Assembly (NCBI GenBank): GCA_040954595.2
Contig: CM082597.2
Coordinates: 2,120,422-2,184,421 of the forward strand
DNA length: 64,000 nt
Direction: 5' to 3'
Source of the DNA: Balanoglossus misakiensis
Taxonomy: Eukaryota > Animalia > Hemichordata
Positions 18,269 through 51,400 of this stretch are shown here, one piece after another. Each line of letters starts with the position of its first letter. The stretch's first letter is position 1. A program made the translations under genes and the position numbers. Below the pieces are notes generated by a model, which was given only the letters and a program-made list of their open reading frames with translations, had not been told where the DNA came from and searched no databases.

Positions 18269-19943
18269 ATGATTGGTAAGTTGTTAGGTATAGTTCTGTA
18301 ATATTAGAGAAAAGGAATCAGTAACTGTAATGTTTGGTTACTTTGAGAAGTAATTTATAAATCATTCAGACGTGCTCAGAACTTTGTCTTATGGAGATTC
18401 AAACTTGCGTTGTGTGACATGTAAATAATTTGTAATGTTAACTATATTGCTCTTTTGTATATATATATTCCTGTAGCGAGAAAACAACGGAACATTGGGA
18501 TATGCTTCTTCATAGCCACGACTGCATTTATTGGATTAGTATTGATCAGCCAGAAACCACTTCTACATGAACGCATCAAATGGTAGGCACTTGTGTTTTT
18601 ATGTGAATCTCATGTAGCAATAGCTGAGTTGGTTAATTACAGTAGCGACGGACTGCTAGCTAGCCAAGTAACACAAGCCATTGCTTTGTATGAAACTAGA
18701 CTAGGTGCATATTATAACACAATTGTAATTTCTGTGGCGTTCAACTCGATGGGCCGTGTGTTGTTTTTCCTGTGTCTCGCCGCTTTGATTTGACCACGTG
18801 AACGGAAGTACGAGGATGTAAGGTCATGTAGGGGTCATGAAAGTGGCCAACGAGAGGTGACCGTATCATTCAACCATCAGGGCTCCTCTTAGGGTATAAC
18901 AATTTATTTATTTATTTATTTTATCCAGGAAAGGGTATTTATTAACACAAACAGTTGCGAGTACACGTGCACCACAAGCTCGTAGTAAGGCCGAACACCG
19001 ACAATCTGCTTCTTGCAAACCGCAGAGGGACTTCGTGTACATCAAGATACCCAAAACCGGAAGCAGCACCCTGTCGAAGATTTTATTCATGTACGGAATC
19101 AATCACGAATTAGTCGCAGCCATTGCTCCGAGGTCTCACTTCTTCATCCGCAGGGACGACTCCCTGGAACCACACATGCAAATGCAGGTGCTTCGATACA
19201 ACTGCACGTCATTTCCGGGGTACAACTACATAGCCAGCCACGTCATCTACAATCGCGAGGCTATGCAGGCACTGATCCCGAAAGCGAAATTCTTCACGGT
19301 CATTAGAAATTCATACAACCACGCGCGATCATGGTTCTATGCTGGGGATGATCATTTGTCTACAAAGACATCCAAGTCGTTTGAAAATTACATGCTTGAG
19401 TATTATTCAAAGAACCATGAAAACCTGAATAGCAAATGTCTCAAAACTGTAACGATGAGCCAGGCTAGTTTCTTGGGTATAAACCAAGAAGACTGCCCAA
19501 ACTCCACCTCATTAACTTCAACTTTTGAACAGTTGGAAAGAGAGATTGACTTGGTGTTGATCAACGAGTATTATGAAGAATCTCTGATCCTGTTGAAGAA
19601 GTTGATGTGTTGGGATGATGTTGATCTCGTGTACGTGTACACCCACTTACATGAGTATGTTCGGGCGCCTGAAGATCCCAAAGTGCGAGAGGTGATAGAC
19701 AAGGTAAATTATGTGGACGCCATGATGTACGATCACTTCAATCGCTCCTTCTGGAAGAAAATCGACGAGTACGACGGTGACTTTCAACAGGATTTGGCCA
19801 GATACCGACGGGTCCGAAATGAAACGCTGACAAAATGCCCGAAGGAGAGACCGCAATCGCCCTACTGTGTTCAGTTAACCAAAATTCCACAGCACCCCCT
19901 ACAAGGACAGGCCTACCAATACCAAATGAAATGGATGTGTTAG
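18269..19943 (+). CDS. Galactose-3-O-sulfotransferase family Golgi type II membrane protein, 3 coding exons
   Basis: Exons 18269-18275 (ATG ATT G), 18477-18582 (ARKQRNIGICFFIATTAFIGLVLISQK, TM anchor) and 18929-19943. The last exon carries the 5'-PSB FVYIKIPKTGSST, the 3'-PB FTVIRN..S.F.Y, DLVLINEYYEESLILLKKLMCW and D..MYDHFNRSFWKKI, all typical of GAL3ST proteins. Confidence 0.9.
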
Positions 19944-21876: not shown

Positions 21877-23897
21877 ATGAAGACTTTGACGCCCCTCCTG
21901 TTGCTGTTAGCAACAGCGTGCCTGTATGTTTCCGGTAAGCGCCCCTTCACCTTACCGACAAGGAATCCGTTTCTCATTAATCATGCCAAGCGATGTCCAC
22001 ATAATATAATCAAAGTTTGTTTTTGCTTGATTTAGTGAAAAATAATATCTGTTAAATAGGATAATATAAGTGAATGGCAATCCCGAGTAATACACGGTAA
22101 AGACCAAAATCGTATATTGTCACCACCTCACGTGCACATAGGGGTATAATCTCTTTAAAAACTGAAACAAATATTTCAGTGAAAATTCGCTGTGATTTTA
22201 ATATGATTTCATGTCACAATGATCAGCGCGGGCCGTTCGATACATGTAGATTTGTCGGTCTAATTTCCCGGACAGGGTCCCTAAGCTTCCAAAATGCTGA
22301 CTCAAACGTGTACGATGAGGACGTGGGCCATATTGTCAGAGATAAAAAATCCCGTACTAAGCGGTATCTGTGTTGTAACCCACAGTTCACCATGCCAAAG
22401 AACTTAATAGTCTCTCATAACAAAAGTCGAACAAAACATCCGCAAATATGGCCTTTTTTCTTATCCAAATGTATAAATTTCTTCTGAAATATAAATGGAA
22501 ACACGAAGCAAACATGCAACGTGGCAGAAAGCAAATTTGATAGTTTTTGGCAACAGGTGTCAGGAGTCCACTCCGTCGTGCAAACTGCGCCACGATTAAC
22601 TAATTGTGTCCACCTGTCTTGTTTGCAACGGAGGTCGTGACAGCGAGCATGCCGTTAAAATGTTGACCTCACGATTTCGAAAACAGGTTGACCTTTGTCC
22701 CCACAGCAACCTCTGCATGGAAATAATAAAGCATGCATCCTTCTGTAGTAACATGTTTTCTGCTTTTTATGTTAAATAGTCAGTTGAACTTTAATTTCCT
22801 CCACCACAACAACCACCACCACCACCACCATCTACAACAACAACAATAACAACATCGGAAAATTGTTCCTTTTGACAATTCTTCCTTCTGTTTCCTTAGA
22901 CAACATTGAATTGACTGGAAACAATTTCAACTTTCTCATTTTAGAGGCAAAATCATTGGTTCGAACGAACCGTGTGGCAGTGATGACCCAGAGCAAACCC
23001 ACAGCGGTAAAATCAACTGGTCAAAAGTTGTATGTAAAGGGTGGTTTGACTGCAAAGGTTTCTGATGACATGATTGGTCGAGTGTCCGACGACATGATTG
23101 GTCAAGTGTCTGATGACATGATTGGTCGTGTCTCTGATGATGAAGTGATTGCTCAAGTCTCCGATGACATGGTTGGGCGAGTCTCCGACGACATGATTGG
23201 TCAAGTGTCTGATGACATGATTGGTCGTGTCTCTGATGATGAAGTGATTGCTAGAGTCTCCGATGACATGGTTGGTCAAGTCTCCGATGTCATGATTGGT
23301 CGTGTCTCCGATGACATGATTGGTCGTGTCTCTGATGATGAAGTGATTGCTCGAGTCCCCGATGACATGGTTGGGCGAGTCTCCGATGACATGATTGGGC
23401 GAGTCTCCGATGACATGATTGGTCGTGTCTCTGATGATGAAGTGATTGCTCGAGTCTCCGATGACATGGTTGGGCGAGTCTCCGATGACATGATTGGTCG
23501 TGTCTCTGATGATGAAGTGATTGCTCGAGTCTCCGATGACATGGTTGGGCGAGTCTCCGATGACATGATTGGCCAAGTGTCTGACGACATGGTTGGTCGT
23601 GTCTCCGATGACATGATTGGTCGTGTCTCTGATGATGAAGTGATTGCTAGAGTCTCCGATGACATGATTGGTCGAGTCTCTGATGATGAAGTGATTGCTA
23701 GAGTCTCCGATGACATGATTGGTCGAGTCTCTGATGACATGGTTGGCCGAGTCTCTGATGACATGATTGGTCAAGTCTCTGATGACGAAGTGATTGCTAG
23801 AGTCTCCGATGACATGATTGGCCGAGTCTCCGATGACTTCCTCGGGCGTGTGTACGATGACGAAATCGGTGTAGCAACTGTTATTGACGATGAGTAG
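21877..23897 (+). CDS. Secreted acidic repeat protein / candidate multi-copy peptide precursor, (VSDDMIGR)n, 2 exons
   Basis: Exon 1, 21877-21934, is MKTLTPLLLLLATACLYVS+G with a GTAAGC donor. It joins in phase 1 to the acceptor ttttag at 22944/22945, giving EAKSLVRTNR... and ~33 repeats of 8-9 aa up to TAG at 23897. CATAAAA TATA-like element at ~21787. Confidence 0.85.
23056..23870 (+). repeat. Coding tandem repeat of 24/27-bp units
   Basis: Units gtctccgatgacatgattggtcga and gtctctgatgatgaagtgattgctcga, with mostly synonymous variation and no frameshifts. Confidence 0.95.
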
Positions 23898-24512
23898 TAT
23901 GAATAACATTGGTAATTACTGTGATAAAATAAGTAATGAATGAAATGTTGCTGCATGATTTTACATTAGTATATCGGTTATTTTTTCATTGACACTGATA
24001 AGTATAACTGAGATGATTTGTGCTTTTTTTCGTTTCAGAAATATAAGCGGTGACTGGCATAAAGTAAAACATAATAACTGCAGCAATCATGGTGTATGGA
24101 GCTTTGGTGAATCGATCGATCTCTACAGCACTCGCTACCGGGATTAATGTATCACATAGCCACGGTGTATAATATGTGGTATATTTTATTGTTAACACAG
24201 TTGAATAGAAGTCATCACTTCATTTACAGTGAATTATTTTGCCAAATATTCAAATTTGGTCTTCGGTGGACATTACCCACAACCGACTGGGTGTGGAGTA
24301 TTCTCTTGTGCAATTGCAATAGCTTCTGGAATAAAATGATGGTATAAAATGGAACTTGTCCGTCAGATGTTGCCTGGTATTAATCTAATATCAATATCTG
24401 GTGGCGCACTTTTGTGTGTGTAAACACAGATGACGAGCATCGTTATTATTTACTTAAACATAAGCGTGCAAAACCGACGTACACGCAGTTTTTCCTGCAA
24501 GACTAGTCGAGC

Positions 24513-28607: not shown

Positions 28608-29726
28608 CCAATACATCTATCCATTCCTTCATCACAGGCAAGTCATTCACGATTCATTCTCACTCATGTTTATATATAATCATTTTCAAATTCTGCCGGT
28701 TATTATTGCCACTGTCAGTTTCGGAAATAAATTACGCTTTTGATTTACCACTGACATCGGCATCTGAAATATTTCTTATTATCATCATATATGTCATGCC
28801 CAAAATATGTCAATATCTGTGGCTTCGGTACCCCGTTCTGAATTAAACTTTGGACCTTTACATGTACTCGATTTTCAAGACAATGATAACAATGTTAACT
28901 TCATTTGGATGTGTTGATAAGCTGGTTCTGAGCCCTATGTAAAGTGCCAATATACTGACACACTTTCTGTGATGCATGTCATTTTAATATTATGCATTAA
29001 ACGATAAAAACTGAAAATGCCATTTTCCTCATTACTGAAAGATGCTACGCATTCTTCCCTAATGAAAATATAATTAATACCGCTAACATTTATTAGGACT
29101 GCTTAAAATAACTTCTTTAATCTAATTTTGATTGTATTTACTTTGAGAGGGAGAGGGCACGTTGCCAGTAGCTGCTCGGAACTTGGTAGAACGACATGCC
29201 CACTTTTTACTAGCATGTCTGTATCGACTACAGGACATGTTGCTGAACAGTCAATCTGTAAAGACAGGCCAGGCCAAGTTTATCATGTGTTCCCTATCTG
29301 AAGGTGAATGACCGTTGGTTTCATAATAATAAGCATTGTTCGATAGATCTCCAAAATAATTCTCCAACCATTGTGATAGTCAGATTATATCACCCACTGA
29401 TTGCTAAAGCGTGCAACATTATGAAATGACAACCTTCTGACCAGATGCATCGTAGATAGATATATTGCGACATCACATACATAGAGAAAAAAAAAACTCA
29501 GTCCACACAAGTCATAGTGTACACCCAATCAATGTTCAGTTTACTACAATTGAGTTCCCAGAAAATGTACATATCATTATGTAGAAATAGCAAAGTGTGT
29601 TCAGTGTTGTGGCGGAATTTCTGATCACAAATCGCGTCAACTTGTCAGCTGTCCTACAATTACTGCTTGGTGATGGTCATTACGTCACCGACACTCTGAC
29701 GTCGCTCCATTGTATCATCGTCCGTC

Positions 29727-29814
29727 TCATTCCTGTAAATAGATGAATGATATCTATTAAAGTGGATTTTATTTTCGATGAGTCACACACAATCAATTCA
29801 AACTGGTGAGAAGG

Positions 29815-29845
<31 letters not shown>

Positions 29846-32354
29846 GAAGATTCACAAGAAGGTATACTTACATGTACATCATCTCGGATGTGTATCATTG
29901 GGAATTTTCCTCGTTCTTTGGCAAGAAAGAAAGGACGATTTTACATGTTAGTGAAATAATGCAAGAAAATAAGATTCAAGGTACAGGAATTCGATAATTT
30001 TATGAAAATGCAATTTTTTTGTCACAAATATTGATGCAGTTTGAATTTATCACGGTGTTGGTGTTTATATAAAAATGGGAAACTTACCTTGAACAGCTCT
30101 TTCTACGTCCTATATCAAACAAGAAAAACGAACAAACAAATCCTTTATTTATCTGACACTTACACAGATATGAAGCCAACTTGAGTTGCAGGGACGGTCT
30201 TTACACTGTAAAAATGAAATTAGCCATACTTACCCGCAATCCGAGATGCATGCGACGTTTTTCTGCAAGCGAACAGACAGTTACAAATTTAGTTGACCCA
30301 CTGTGGTAGCAAAATTAAAAATACTTGAAAATATTTCAAAAAAATATTTCCTTACCAATGTCGGAATCGTAGATGTCGTCATCGCTTTCCTGAAAGAAAA
30401 CGACTTAAATTGTCAAAAACTCAAAACACTCGTGAAGGTCTGCGTGACCGATTTTTCTATTTCTCTGAATACTGAATTCTTATAAGAAAGAGTGTCGTTG
30501 TAATACTTACTCTAAGTCCGAGATGCATTCGTCTTTTCTCTGCAATGAAAGATGAGGGAGTTATCTTGGCAAATATTTCATATATGGGAACAGTGTGATT
30601 TTAGGAGCAGACAATCGGAATATTGTGACATAATCTATACTAATAATTAAGTTTTAATATAAAAATGATGTTAAGTTCAAATTAATACACAAGGGTCTCT
30701 ACGCGTGTGGAGATCTTTTTAAGTTTAAACCTACCTGGTTCGTCCTGAAGAAAGCGTGCAAAAAACACAGAAATAAATATTGCATAATTCACTAACAAAA
30801 GTACAGAGAGGAATGGTTAATATTTGATTGAACCCAACAAAGTTATGACCGAAAAGCATTTACAAAAAATGAAAGTAAACGTATTCTAGTGATGTTAGAG
30901 GGCGTCGTTAAGAGGGCGCTGTTCTCTACTTACTCTCAAGCCCAGATGCATACGACGTTTCTCTGCCAAGGAAAAATCATGAAAATGCAAATGAGTAGTT
31001 GTGAGACCACGTGATTACCTTATCGTTCAACGAGAGTAAAATGAGTGATAAAGTCATGGTTTAGTAATTGTCACATACCTGCTTCGTAGACCTCATCGTC
31101 ACTAGCCTGAAGCAGAACAGACAAGACATGAATGAATGATTCATGTAATTTATTAATTAAACCTGTCGCCATTTTCTCCAATTTTGAAACGAAGACTATA
31201 CGTTCATCCTCGCATATGAGCTAAATTTACTTACCCTAAGTCCAAGATGCATACGTCTCTTCTCTGTAAGTGAAGGGAAAACATTTAAGGTACAGTCGTC
31301 AACTTGAGAAGGTAAATGATTTAGACTTCAACTTCGCTGTGAGCTTGTCCAACGCATATATCCTTGACTTACCTAGATCTGGATAAGCCGCCTGTAATTT
31401 AATAAAAAAGAATAGTATATATAAGGGTTGAATCCAAATGTAGGCGAGGTATATCTTTTAATAATGTTGTGCGATTTACACCACTTTCTTCTGTAAAAAC
31501 CATACGCGGATTTTTTTACATTCTTTTACAAAATGATAGCCTTTAATATTCACTTTTATAAATGTATGCTATGAGTCTACGAAATTACTTACCCTGCTGC
31601 CGAGGCTGTAACGGCGTTTTCCTGCAAGAAGAAAAAATATCTGATCACTGTTTTGCAAATACATGTATGTATAAATTTACCTAAAACAGGAATTGTGAGT
31701 AATAGATTGGGCAGTAAAAAAGAACAGGTATAGTCTTGACCATTGTGAAGTCTCAACTTACCGAAATCGGGTTCAGCATCCTAAGAGCGAAGAGTCGCCG
31801 TGAAAAAAGAAATTGTACATATTGAACATGAAGTGAGGCAAAATGCAATATTTAGAACGTTTTGCACTATTTACACCAGAAACAACAATCACATCACAAC
31901 AAAAGTCAACAATAATAACAAAGTTTACAGAGCTGTACTCACCCTTAGACCAAGATGCATGCGTCGTTTTTCTATCATTAAAAGAAACGAAAATTAGTCT
32001 GGAGTAAGTATGGAGCTTCTTCAGTCACGTGTTAAGTAATTTGCATTAGATGTTAATCAAGCACTTTCGACAGAATTCGCCCCAAGTACTATAGAATGTA
32101 ATGGTAACTCACCGATTCCAGCATCCTGAATTGCCGGCATGGAAGAAAACAAAACAGACAGTGTATTAATTAATTTTATCACCAAGGTTTTTTGCATGGA
32201 ATGCCTTGGAATCTTGTAACGAAAAGCACGTATGGAATGTCACAACCTGTCTTGAACACAGAAGACGTATACTCACGCGTTCGGCAAGTTGAGCTGAGCC
32301 AAATCTCACGAACACGAAGAGGGCTGCCAACGTCACAAATACTGCGGCCTGCAT
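29727..32354 (-). CDS. Microexon-encoded prohormone/neuropeptide-like precursor (~148 aa; 5x RMHLGLR, 1x RYSLGSR), 16 coding exons
   Basis: Exons 32277-32354, 32113-32125, 31943-31971, 31762-31780, 31593-31621, 31373-31391, 31235-31263, 31079-31106, 30934-30962, 30735-30744, 30511-30539, 30356-30389, 30234-30262, 30088-30109, 29872-29915 and 29727-29732, joined by GT-AG introns and in phase. Product: MQAAVFVTLAALFVFVRFGSAQLAERDAGIEKRRMHLGLRDAEPDFGKRRYSLGSRAAYPDLEKRRMHLGLRASDDEVYEAEKRRMHLGLRDEPEKRRMHLGLRESDDDIYDSDIEKRRMHLGLRDVERAVQERGKFPMIHIRDDVHE*. The last two exons are less certain. Confidence 0.9.
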
Positions 32355-32416: not shown

Positions 32417-32444
32417 CTTTTATAGTTAGGCGAAATCTGATTGG
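32417..32444 (-). promoter_or_regulatory. TATA box (TATAAAAG, 32417-32424) and CCAAT box (32440-32444) of the peptide precursor gene
   Basis: Consensus motifs on the minus strand, 63-90 nt upstream of the ATG at 32354. Confidence 0.7.
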
Positions 32445-48414: not shown

Positions 48415-51400
48415 ATGAGGACCACAGTTTTGATAATAGCCACCGTTCTTTCATGTCTTGTATTATTTTCCAAAGCCGACAGTAATTTCGTGGTGAGTAT
48501 GACGAAGCAATTCATTTTGTTGTACTCACAGGTGTTTAGACAGTCGGAAAGCAATATATCTCAAATTTCGCTGGAGTATTTCACCATCCCAATCCTAGCT
48601 TAGTTTCTCATAGCGACCATAATTGCGGACGAATATAATTAATGTAAATTTATAATATCGATCGTGAATTGTAGTTCAATTAACCACTTCATTTTCAGTG
48701 TAACCGTCGACTAATGTCACGTTTCATCTGGGGTTGTACTGAATTCATATTTGTCAGAAACGAAATAGGGCGGAAATAATTTCCAATGTATGTGCACACA
48801 CGGTTATAGAGCAACTTTTGCAAAATAAATAGATGTATTCAAGATATCGGAAAGGGAAAGCGCGCAATTGGAGTGTGTGTAATTTAACTTAATTTCTGTA
48901 TTTGGGTTTCCAATTTCTGTAATTGAATCCGACGTAACTTATCTGCCAAACGGTCCCAGGGGTTATAAAAAGGAAATCTTACCACAAGACCGGTGGAATC
49001 TTCTTTTCCCAGGGTCTATAATATGTGTTATCTCTGTGTGATACATTTTGAGACAAGCCTCGTATTTTGATCGTTCAGTCTCTGCATACCACAAAGGCGG
49101 GAATTGTATCAAACAAAACGCGCGCTCAGTTTTTCGCGGGCAAACTCGTGGGAACATTCGAGTGATACATTTTGTGACAAGCCTCGTATTTTGATCGTTC
49201 AGCAGTCTCTGCACACCACAAAGGCGGGGAAAATGTATCAAACAAAACGCGCGCTCAGTTTTTCGCGGGAAAACTCGTGGGAACATTCGAGTGATACATT
49301 TTGTGACAAGCCTCGCATTTTGATCGTTCAGTCTCTGCACACCACAAAGGCGGGAAAAAATGTATCAAACAAAACGCGCGCTCAGTTTTTCGCGGGCAAA
49401 CTCGTGGGAACATTCGAGTGATACATTTTGTGACAAGCCTCGTATTTTGATCGTTCAGCAGTCTCTGCACACCACAAAGGCGGGGAAAATGTATCAAACA
49501 AAACGCGCGCTCAGTTTTTCGCGGGAAAACTCGTGGGAACATTCGAGTGATACATTTTGTGACAAGCCTCGCATTTTGATCGTTCAGTCTCTGCACACCA
49601 CAAAGGCGGGAAAAAATGTATCAAACAAAACGCGCGCTTAGTTTTTTCGCGGGAAAACTCGTGGGAACATCCGATATTCCTTGCACGTCGTGTTTTACAC
49701 CGTCCCCAAGTGACAAACTTAAATTATCCATGGCTATGAATATTTGCGATATGATAAGGGGCGTTCCAGTCCTTGAGCACAACTGGCGATGCGTTCATGA
49801 AACTGCGAAAAAGTACATATCTGCAGAAAAAAATTGACGATGGAAACAATTTATTTAGCTTGACATTAGGCGACATATTTTTGTTTCACTTGTTTCAAGT
49901 CGGGCGGACAATTTTTCTTGGGCGAACAAAGGGTTTACGAATCGTGTATTCGAAGAGTCCCAACTGTCCCTAAAACGTTTTAAAACCCCAGCCCTGATTG
50001 GCCAGAGTCGGTGAAAAGATATAGTGGTACGAAAACCGTTAGCGGTGTGACATTTATGTAGTCGGTTCATTGCCCCTTACGGTGAAAATACGTTCCTGAT
50101 TTTAAAAGTTCTCGTGCGCCAACCGATGACTGACTTTACGCAGAATAATAATTCCACTTAACCAATTTCACTACAAGTGGAAATATTTCTACGAAGACTG
50201 ACTCATCGTACTGCAACCTTAGAAGTAACCACTTTGCCGGAATCCTTTCCCCCTTCATATCTCCTCAAACATATTAATGCATTCTGCATTTATCTGTACG
50301 AATTTTCCCCAGGAAAACGTCAATGCAAAATTTAATTATCTTAAAACGAGTGTAGTAATCTGACCATCATTCGCCTAAGTGAACCACGAGTAATAATAAC
50401 CATCTTACTTGGAAGTTGTGAGCAGGTGAACTTTATAAGCAAAAAGGGAAATATCTCCAATATGTGCTTATATCACTTGCTTATCACGGTAAACGCTCCC
50501 AAAATAGTTCTCTCTTGCAGATTTTAGATACAAGATACAAATCATTCCGATTTTACCAATATCTGAAATTATAAAAGCCTGTAGCAGAATTCAGTTAAAG
50601 TATGATCGAAAAAAATATGCCACGAGCACGCCTAAGTGAGTTGTTATTGATTCTCGCCTTTTCTAATTACAGGGTGCTGGTAGATCAGAGAAAATACCGG
50701 TAAGTCACGCAAATATTGTAGTTACTTGTTAAGACAATATATTTAATAACGTAGGCCCACATATCGATGAATATTGATATGCGTGGATAGAGTGTGTAGT
50801 TATTTCATTGATTTATCTGCTGCCAATTTTGACAAGAAGAGAAAATTCAGCACGTTTCGTGCGAAGAGTTGTGGGTCTAATCTGACGACACCCACTTTGT
50901 GTCTTAGTTATCTTCAGAACGTCATTCTGTCTCCAAAGTGGTGACCTTAGTTCATTGCGCTGAAGGAGATCGTGATCTTTTGAGCCTCGACAGTCTTGCA
51001 CATTTTCGTTTAATCTTCCTAATCTTAATGGACTTAGGAGTGAAAAAGGTGCACCGCCTTTCTACAGCTAGTTATCCATGCACTTTGCGTTGTCGAATCT
51101 TTCCGGAAGTCTGCAGATATCAAACATGCTTGCCTGTTTCGCATGGGTCACCTAGGGTGGCCTCTTAGTTCCTTCTGCAACCAGATAACCTAAGTTCACT
51201 GTCTTTCTGAGCCGCCCTAGCTTACTCTCTGAGAGATAAAACCAACCGTTCTTCATACGCCTCGCTGAGCTCATCATACCTTCAACAAATTACACGTTCT
51301 AGTTGAAAGATCACATTTTCGCCAAGCCTCTGAATATAAATCAACGTCCCATTTATTGGCTTATCTGTTAACGGAGATCTACAGTCTTCCGGGAACCTCT

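Follow-up and report, generated by a model that had tools for sequence, protein, structure and literature searches.

A conserved acorn-worm gene of alternating microexons encodes a predicted multi-copy peptide precursor

Convertase cleavage followed by carboxypeptidase trimming is the established pathway of precursor processing, and one peptide per exon is known from the proglucagon, VIP and tachykinin genes. In the available part of the published description, pipid frog skin-peptide genes (magainin, CPF, caerulein, hymenochirin) combine tandem duplication of two exons with acidic spacers, in repeats of 138-147 bp that are often near-identical in DNA (PMC3899252). Within hemichordates, the achatin (GFGN) precursor of Saccoglossus has a signal peptide, acidic spacers and a repeated non-amidated peptide flanked by KR on both sides, as given in the consulted portion of PMC6188537. 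Hemichordate neurons express the processing machinery, and the neuropeptidome is described as incompletely annotated for lack of peptidomics in the accessible text of a preprint (bioRxiv 10.64898/2026.04.13.718258).

The locus studied here lies in a 64,000-nt stretch of the Balanoglossus misakiensis genome (contig CM082597.2), referred to below as the window, and is a real, conserved, previously uncharacterised acorn-worm peptide precursor gene with an extreme microexon layout. It shares the acidic spacers and, in all likelihood, the two-exon duplication of the frog genes, but its units measure 39-63 nt, its synonymous sites are saturated and its peptide has 5-6 residues; the likeness implies no homology. 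With achatin it shares acidic spacers and a repeated non-amidated peptide at basic sites, and exon 1 may encode a signal peptide as well, whereas its peptide sequence is unrelated and its cores carry KRR before them and a single R after them. The sequence-only reading of this DNA had called the layout unusual, which holds for the size of the exons (14 consecutive exons of 10-38 nt); in kind the layout is not new, given the frog exon-pair precedent in the part of PMC3899252 available. The gene comprises 16 minus-strand exons between 32354 and 29727, forming a single open frame with a product of 146-148 aa, and its features are as follows.

32440..32444, minus strand: CCAAT box, predicted promoter element 90 nt upstream of the ATG (sequence match only)
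32419..32424, minus strand: TATA box (TATAAA), predicted promoter element 70 nt upstream of the ATG (sequence match only)
32277..32354, minus strand: exon 1, coding portion of 78 nt ending in phase 0, with a predicted signal peptide (about residues 1-21) and 5 further residues (hydropathy; spliced contig over 32321-32277)
32113..32125, minus strand: exon 2, spacer microexon, 13 nt, phase 0 to 1 (model; between-letters of spliced contig)
31943..31971, minus strand: exon 3, core 1, 29 nt, phase 1 to 0, KRR + MHLGL + R (model; spliced contig)
31762..31780, minus strand: exon 4, spacer microexon, 19 nt (model; bin coverage)
31593..31621, minus strand: exon 5, 29-nt variant core with a Gly/Ser polymorphism, KRR + YSLGS + R (model; spliced contig)
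31373..31391, minus strand: exon 6, spacer microexon, 19 nt, 5 of 6 residues as in the Ptychodera flava spacer after the variant core (model; P. flava comparison)
31235..31263, minus strand: exon 7, core 2, 29 nt (model; spliced contig)
31079..31106, minus strand: exon 8, acidic Tyr-containing spacer, 28 nt (model; between-letters, one synonymous difference)
30934..30962, minus strand: exon 9, core 3, 29 nt (model; spliced contig)
30735..30744, minus strand: exon 10, spacer microexon, 10 nt (model; between-letters)
30511..30539, minus strand: exon 11, core 4, 29 nt (model; spliced contig)
30356..30389, minus strand: exon 12, acidic Tyr-containing spacer, 34 nt, matches two P. flava spacers best (model; spliced contig)
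30234..30262, minus strand: exon 13, core 5, 29 nt (model; contig joints)
30088..30109, minus strand: exon 14, spacer, 22 nt (model; contig joints)
29878..29915, minus strand: exon 15, 38 nt as spliced in the contig, coding for the divergent last peptide (model; spliced contig)
29524..29732, minus strand: exon 16, with the last codon, the stop (29729-29727) and a 3' UTR reaching 29524 or further (model; spliced contig)

All 15 introns are GT-AG and 93-201 nt long, and 11 of the 15 donors in the transcript-based model read GTAAGT or GTGAGT. Phases alternate strictly, the spacers (10-34 nt) running from phase 0 to 1 and the 29-nt cores from phase 1 to 0; five core exons encode (E)KRRMHLGLR, one encodes (G)KRRYSLGSR, and exon 15 holds the divergent last peptide. 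The alternation of spacers and 29-nt cores that the sequence-only reading had described was recovered across the internal exons, together with the CCAAT and TATA boxes that it had noted upstream of exon 1. As a control for chance, two identical 9-mers bounded by AG..GT appeared in none of 500 shuffles of the 4-kb region, which in reality has five, and in one of 15 other tiles of the window.

The gene stretch is covered by three public runs (X1, X2 and X3), all from one sample. X1 and X2 cover the introns and behave as DNA, and X3 shows exon coverage without intron coverage, with one 635-nt contig that follows the gene model base for base. A spliced transcript joining the exons had been proposed as a check on this gene, and the X3 contig carries the 16-exon model, with 13 exons appearing as aligned pieces and the letters of exons 2, 8 and 10 falling between joints. 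The joint table lists eight joints, of which five read directly CT..AC in plus-strand orientation (= GT..AG); the four junctions that connect exons 3 to 7 lie outside it and are placed by bin coverage (within 2 bases) and by record arithmetic, which is exact (X3 contig position 611 = base 29524). Because the introns have no coverage in X3, we infer that the contig is cDNA, this transcript support consisting of a single contig of one sample, whose run type was guessed as 'DNA?'. The contig runs on beyond 29524 with a loose end of 24 nt, which is no poly(A) tail, and the minus-strand AATAAA nearest to its end is at 29094.

The exon set proposed earlier agrees with this contig except at the end of exon 15, which falls at 29878 and not at 29872; a 44-nt exon reaching 29872 would apply if the window haplotype uses its own GTAAGT donor, and the X2 haplotype lacks the 6 nt that separate the two forms. 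Exon 5 proved polymorphic, both X2 and X3 carrying Gly to Ser in the variant core. Three of the 31 listed allelic differences within the gene span fall in exons, which make up 17% of the span, so that no clear depletion in exons is seen among those listed (51 further rows exist); none of the 31 falls in the five identical cores.

Several other genes and repeats were observed in the window. DCAF8 (2.3-6.5 kb, minus strand), 23 kb from the peptide gene, stands head to head with a Nas2_N-domain gene (7.2-8.1 kb, plus strand), which we take to be PSMD9-like; over 100 residues DCAF8 is 91% identical to its counterpart in P. flava and 86% to that of Glandiceps talaboti, with at most 59% identity to the other 75 of 77 matches. 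At least three paralogous CAP-domain genes flank the peptide gene on the minus strand (about 12.3-14.0, 24.5-26.6 and 33.9-35.2 kb), two of them with Pfam LDL-receptor class A matches, and a degenerate tandem repeat (22788-23915), open for 300-369 codons on both strands, adjoins a CAP gene. A galactose-3-O-sulfotransferase-like gene occupies a long single frame at 18900-19943 (plus strand), with 32-38% identity to Glandiceps and Saccoglossus proteins, all four of its matches being enteropneust. By the DCAF8 and sulfotransferase matches the host falls near Ptychodera among the enteropneusts. An ATG exon at 48415-48492 (plus strand) has a signal-peptide-like stretch, a GTGAGT donor, and CCAAT (48238) and TATAAA (48301) upstream, and possibly belongs to another small secreted-protein gene; a strict scan to 58000 found no convincing exons after it. 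Tandem DNA repeats lie at about 49.0-49.65 kb and 62.8-64.0 kb, the terminal one with an 88-nt period by ORF spacing.

Relatives were sought by scanning a repeat profile with HMMER over 1.84 billion representatives, a library in which relatives within 50% of a representative are hidden. The profile scores the window's own protein at E 4e-19 and returned five matches, among them one true relative, the P. flava protein XP_070550968.1 (P0083; E 4e-11); the other four were rejected as unrelated repetitive proteins. A word-indexed homologue search with the repeat alignment had given nothing, a false negative in view of the HMMER result, and the profile scan of that library gave no relative from Saccoglossus, Glandiceps or echinoderms. 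Gene models are likely to miss such exons.

XP_070550968.1 is a 105-aa protein annotated as 'uncharacterized protein', in a model without a signal peptide, and its ends seem to read like intron read-through at the window's splice positions. KRRMHLGLR occurs in it four times unchanged and a variant core once, the spacer behind the latter being almost that of the window; over 87 columns it is 67% identical to the window protein. Its remaining spacers have diverged, one apparently duplicated and one moved, although the motifs AAYPD and YDSD are conserved and Tyr in an acidic context occurs in three spacers of each species. XP_070550968.1 and P. flava DCAF8 sit on equally long contigs, DCAF8 being also a neighbour of the gene in the window. 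Compared in this way, the protein qualifies as the orthologue of the window gene, with an MHLGL core conserved between two acorn-worm species, which strengthens the earlier view of purifying selection on the peptide; across the two species, all 11 cores follow the pattern [M/Y/F]-x-L-G-[L/S/G]-R. Other searches named no family: a PDB sequence search with XP_070550968.1 gave one weak unrelated match (E 0.026), Pfam assigned none to exon 1 and the Atlas structure rows named none. Five of the ten Atlas feature rows shown are multi-copy neuropeptide precursor families, all scoring below 0.9 and serving as leads only; they reflect architecture rather than kinship.

The five identical cores differ pairwise at 4-8 of 27 bases and have undergone at least 14 changes in 10 columns, every one of them synonymous (pS 0.97, pN 0; naive probability about 2e-9, mutation bias ignored). 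Their intron flanks are only 23-39% alike, and recent duplication or conversion is therefore not the cause of the identity. The core is under purifying selection, in agreement with what the synonymous variation had suggested at first sight. Taken singly, all 14 internal exons shift the frame, whereas every spacer and core pair is a multiple of 3, so that copy number can change only by pairs; copies were likely gained and reordered via duplication of two-exon modules, a manner of change that fits the reordered spacers of P. flava. A TGC motif upstream of acceptors is a mark of neural microexons, and no enrichment of it was found here (4 of 15, P 0.30).

As in multi-copy precursors, a repeated short peptide is bounded by basic sites and separated by acidic spacers, and the peptide is conserved while the spacers diverge. 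Exon 1 reaches a hydropathy of 2.7 over 9 residues and has a small-residue site near residue 21 (judged by hydropathy only), and every core has KRR in front of it and a single closing Arg behind it. A basic residue at P8 favours a monobasic cleavage context, and the closing Arg has such a residue at P8, together with Asp, Glu or Ala at P1', in seven of seven cases. Mass spectrometry in spiralians has recorded monobasic sites that have another basic residue 3-6 positions upstream of them, according to the accessible part of PMC8557429. The prohormone architecture proposed from the DNA alone holds and is strengthened by the spliced contig and the P. flava orthologue. We consider it probable that the spliced gene yields a secreted prohormone of 146-148 aa that is cut to five non-amidated (R)MHLGL peptides and two variants, acting as neuropeptides on a GPCR. 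Exon 1 would route the precursor into the secretory pathway, a convertase would cut each core free at the KR/RR in front of it and the single Arg behind it, and a carboxypeptidase would trim the C-terminal Arg, the acidic spacers being discarded. The expected products would be five non-amidated RMHLGL or MHLGL peptides and two variant peptides, with no amidation glycine in the cores, unlike in the comparable families consulted. Neuropeptide function would then involve signalling through a GPCR, the default target for such peptides.

The partly conserved spacers, with an acidic Tyr in three per species, count against pure filler and hence against this reading, as do the missing amide signal after the cores and the absence of any relative beyond the two species in the profile scan, within the limits of that library. 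The conserved spacers would be accounted for if cleavage took place only at KRR, giving longer peptides whose conserved N-terminal MHLGLR head is followed by a variable, acidic tail that may bear sulfated Tyr, with amidation in those copies where a Gly stands before KRR. The conserved motifs AAYPD and YDSD agree with such tails, as do G-KRR at one window site (residue 47) and at two of five sites in P. flava; the echinoderm AN peptides have a conserved N-terminus and are in some cases amidated, in the portion of PMC4772807 at hand. We nevertheless regard these longer peptides as unlikely, since the tails range between 3 and 11 residues in length, the Gly sits at a non-orthologous position (before the variant core the window has G and P. 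flava E), and the Arg that ends the core is invariant and lies in a monobasic-site context.

Cleavage on both sides of the core could also serve non-neural secretion, as an epidermal or mucus-gland defence peptide, a pheromone or a spawning cue. A peptide of 5-6 residues is too short for an amphipathic antimicrobial helix, and identity across two species speaks against a species-specific pheromone or an arms-race peptide. In favour of such a role, the closest architecture is that of the frog skin host-defence genes, in which exons 2 and 3 are duplicated (the seen part of PMC3899252), and several CAP+LDLa genes lie among the neighbours. On balance a non-neural role appears improbable. That there is no peptide precursor at all, and that the locus represents an unprocessed repeat protein, a chance reading or a retrocopy artefact, is very improbable, for although the 'DNA?' label of X3 leaves room in principle for the spliced contig to come from a processed copy, and the Atlas model of the orthologue has low confidence (pTM 0.12), the introns are without coverage in X3, as for RNA, selection, orthologue and shuffles exclude chance, and conservation is limited to the basic site and the peptide.

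The peptide had not been recognised as a member of any family on first inspection, and on comparison it belongs to none of those tested (allatostatin A, kisspeptin, TRH, tachykinin and galanin), at most appearing to echo allatostatin-A, kisspeptin, TRH and tachykinin motifs; membership in these four is rejected because the defining amide and aromatic residues are missing. Tachykinin-related peptides carry FxGxRamide or FxGLMamide motifs, and galanin/spexin is a single long peptide with an N-terminal Trp-containing motif and the core YLLGP. GxR is present in the window cores, but they have no Phe at -5 and no amide Gly, and the Atlas tachykinin row (0.81) is a lead only; the listed units have no Trp-containing motif and just a five-residue echo of the YLLGP core. 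Starfish tachykinin is amidated, as stated in the available section of PMC4772807. Allatostatin A is Y/FXFGLamide and kisspeptin NXFGLRYamide (PMC9263205, seen in part). Allatostatin A is likewise multi-copy and the cores recall its xFGL/FGLR; allatostatin A/buccalin was rejected, however, since each of the 11 cores in the two species has Leu in place of the Phe before Gly, and none has an amide, the last core residue being directly followed by Arg, not Gly. For kisspeptin, GLR in the window is followed by Asp, Glu or Ala, with neither a C-terminal NXFGLR(Y/F)amide nor an aromatic residue after Arg, and S. kowalevskii, to judge from the literature text at our disposal, already has a kisspeptin precursor with two peptides. 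TRH has pyroglutamate and an amide (pQHP-NH2) and, in echinoderms, a two-exon coding structure (PMC11890989, in the passages available), whereas the window cores have neither N-terminal Gln nor amide and the gene has 16 exons; the Pfam TRH match (E 0.015, 15.5 bits) is below the cut-off of 27.8.

Searches of the literature with the peptide motifs and XP_070550968.1 gave no match, in sources whose figure sequences are not searchable and whose Saccoglossus precursor tables and 2013 surveys could hold a relative. The motifs did not occur in the accessible main text of PMC10508912, PMC9793003, PMC5627052 and PMC8557429, and the viewed portions of the supplements of PMC10508912, PMC6188537 and PMC8557429 gave no precursor match, the motif places shown lying in GPCRs and unrelated precursors (two of three SLGGR places shown). 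Literature pairing microexons with a neuropeptide precursor was, by its titles, schistosome work. The gene represents a peptide family not described before, in a kind of system that is itself well known.

Sea urchin galanin-type receptors were reported without a ligand in 2017 (PMC5860471), and hemichordate kisspeptin-type receptors were awaiting ligands in 2022 (PMC9400282), both according to the available excerpts. The [M/Y/F]-x-L-G-x(R) peptides might be the ligand that ambulacrarians are missing for the allatostatin-A/galanin/kisspeptin receptor group, lacking the amide and standing in sequence between YxFGL-amide and the galanin core; we hold this for a doubtful, speculative proposal, under which the ligand would have been overlooked because exons of 10-38 nt defeat gene prediction. 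If true, it would also imply that acorn worms possess a hidden class of neuropeptide genes encoded by microexons. The gene itself shows one way in which such genes escape notice, the only database record found being a fragment without a signal peptide, and its two-exon module is a simple genomic mechanism for altering peptide copy number. Chordate neuropeptide systems are traced with hemichordates as a key outgroup, and the gene offers a concrete, synthesisable peptide, identical in two acorn-worm species, that can be screened against orphan hemichordate GPCRs.
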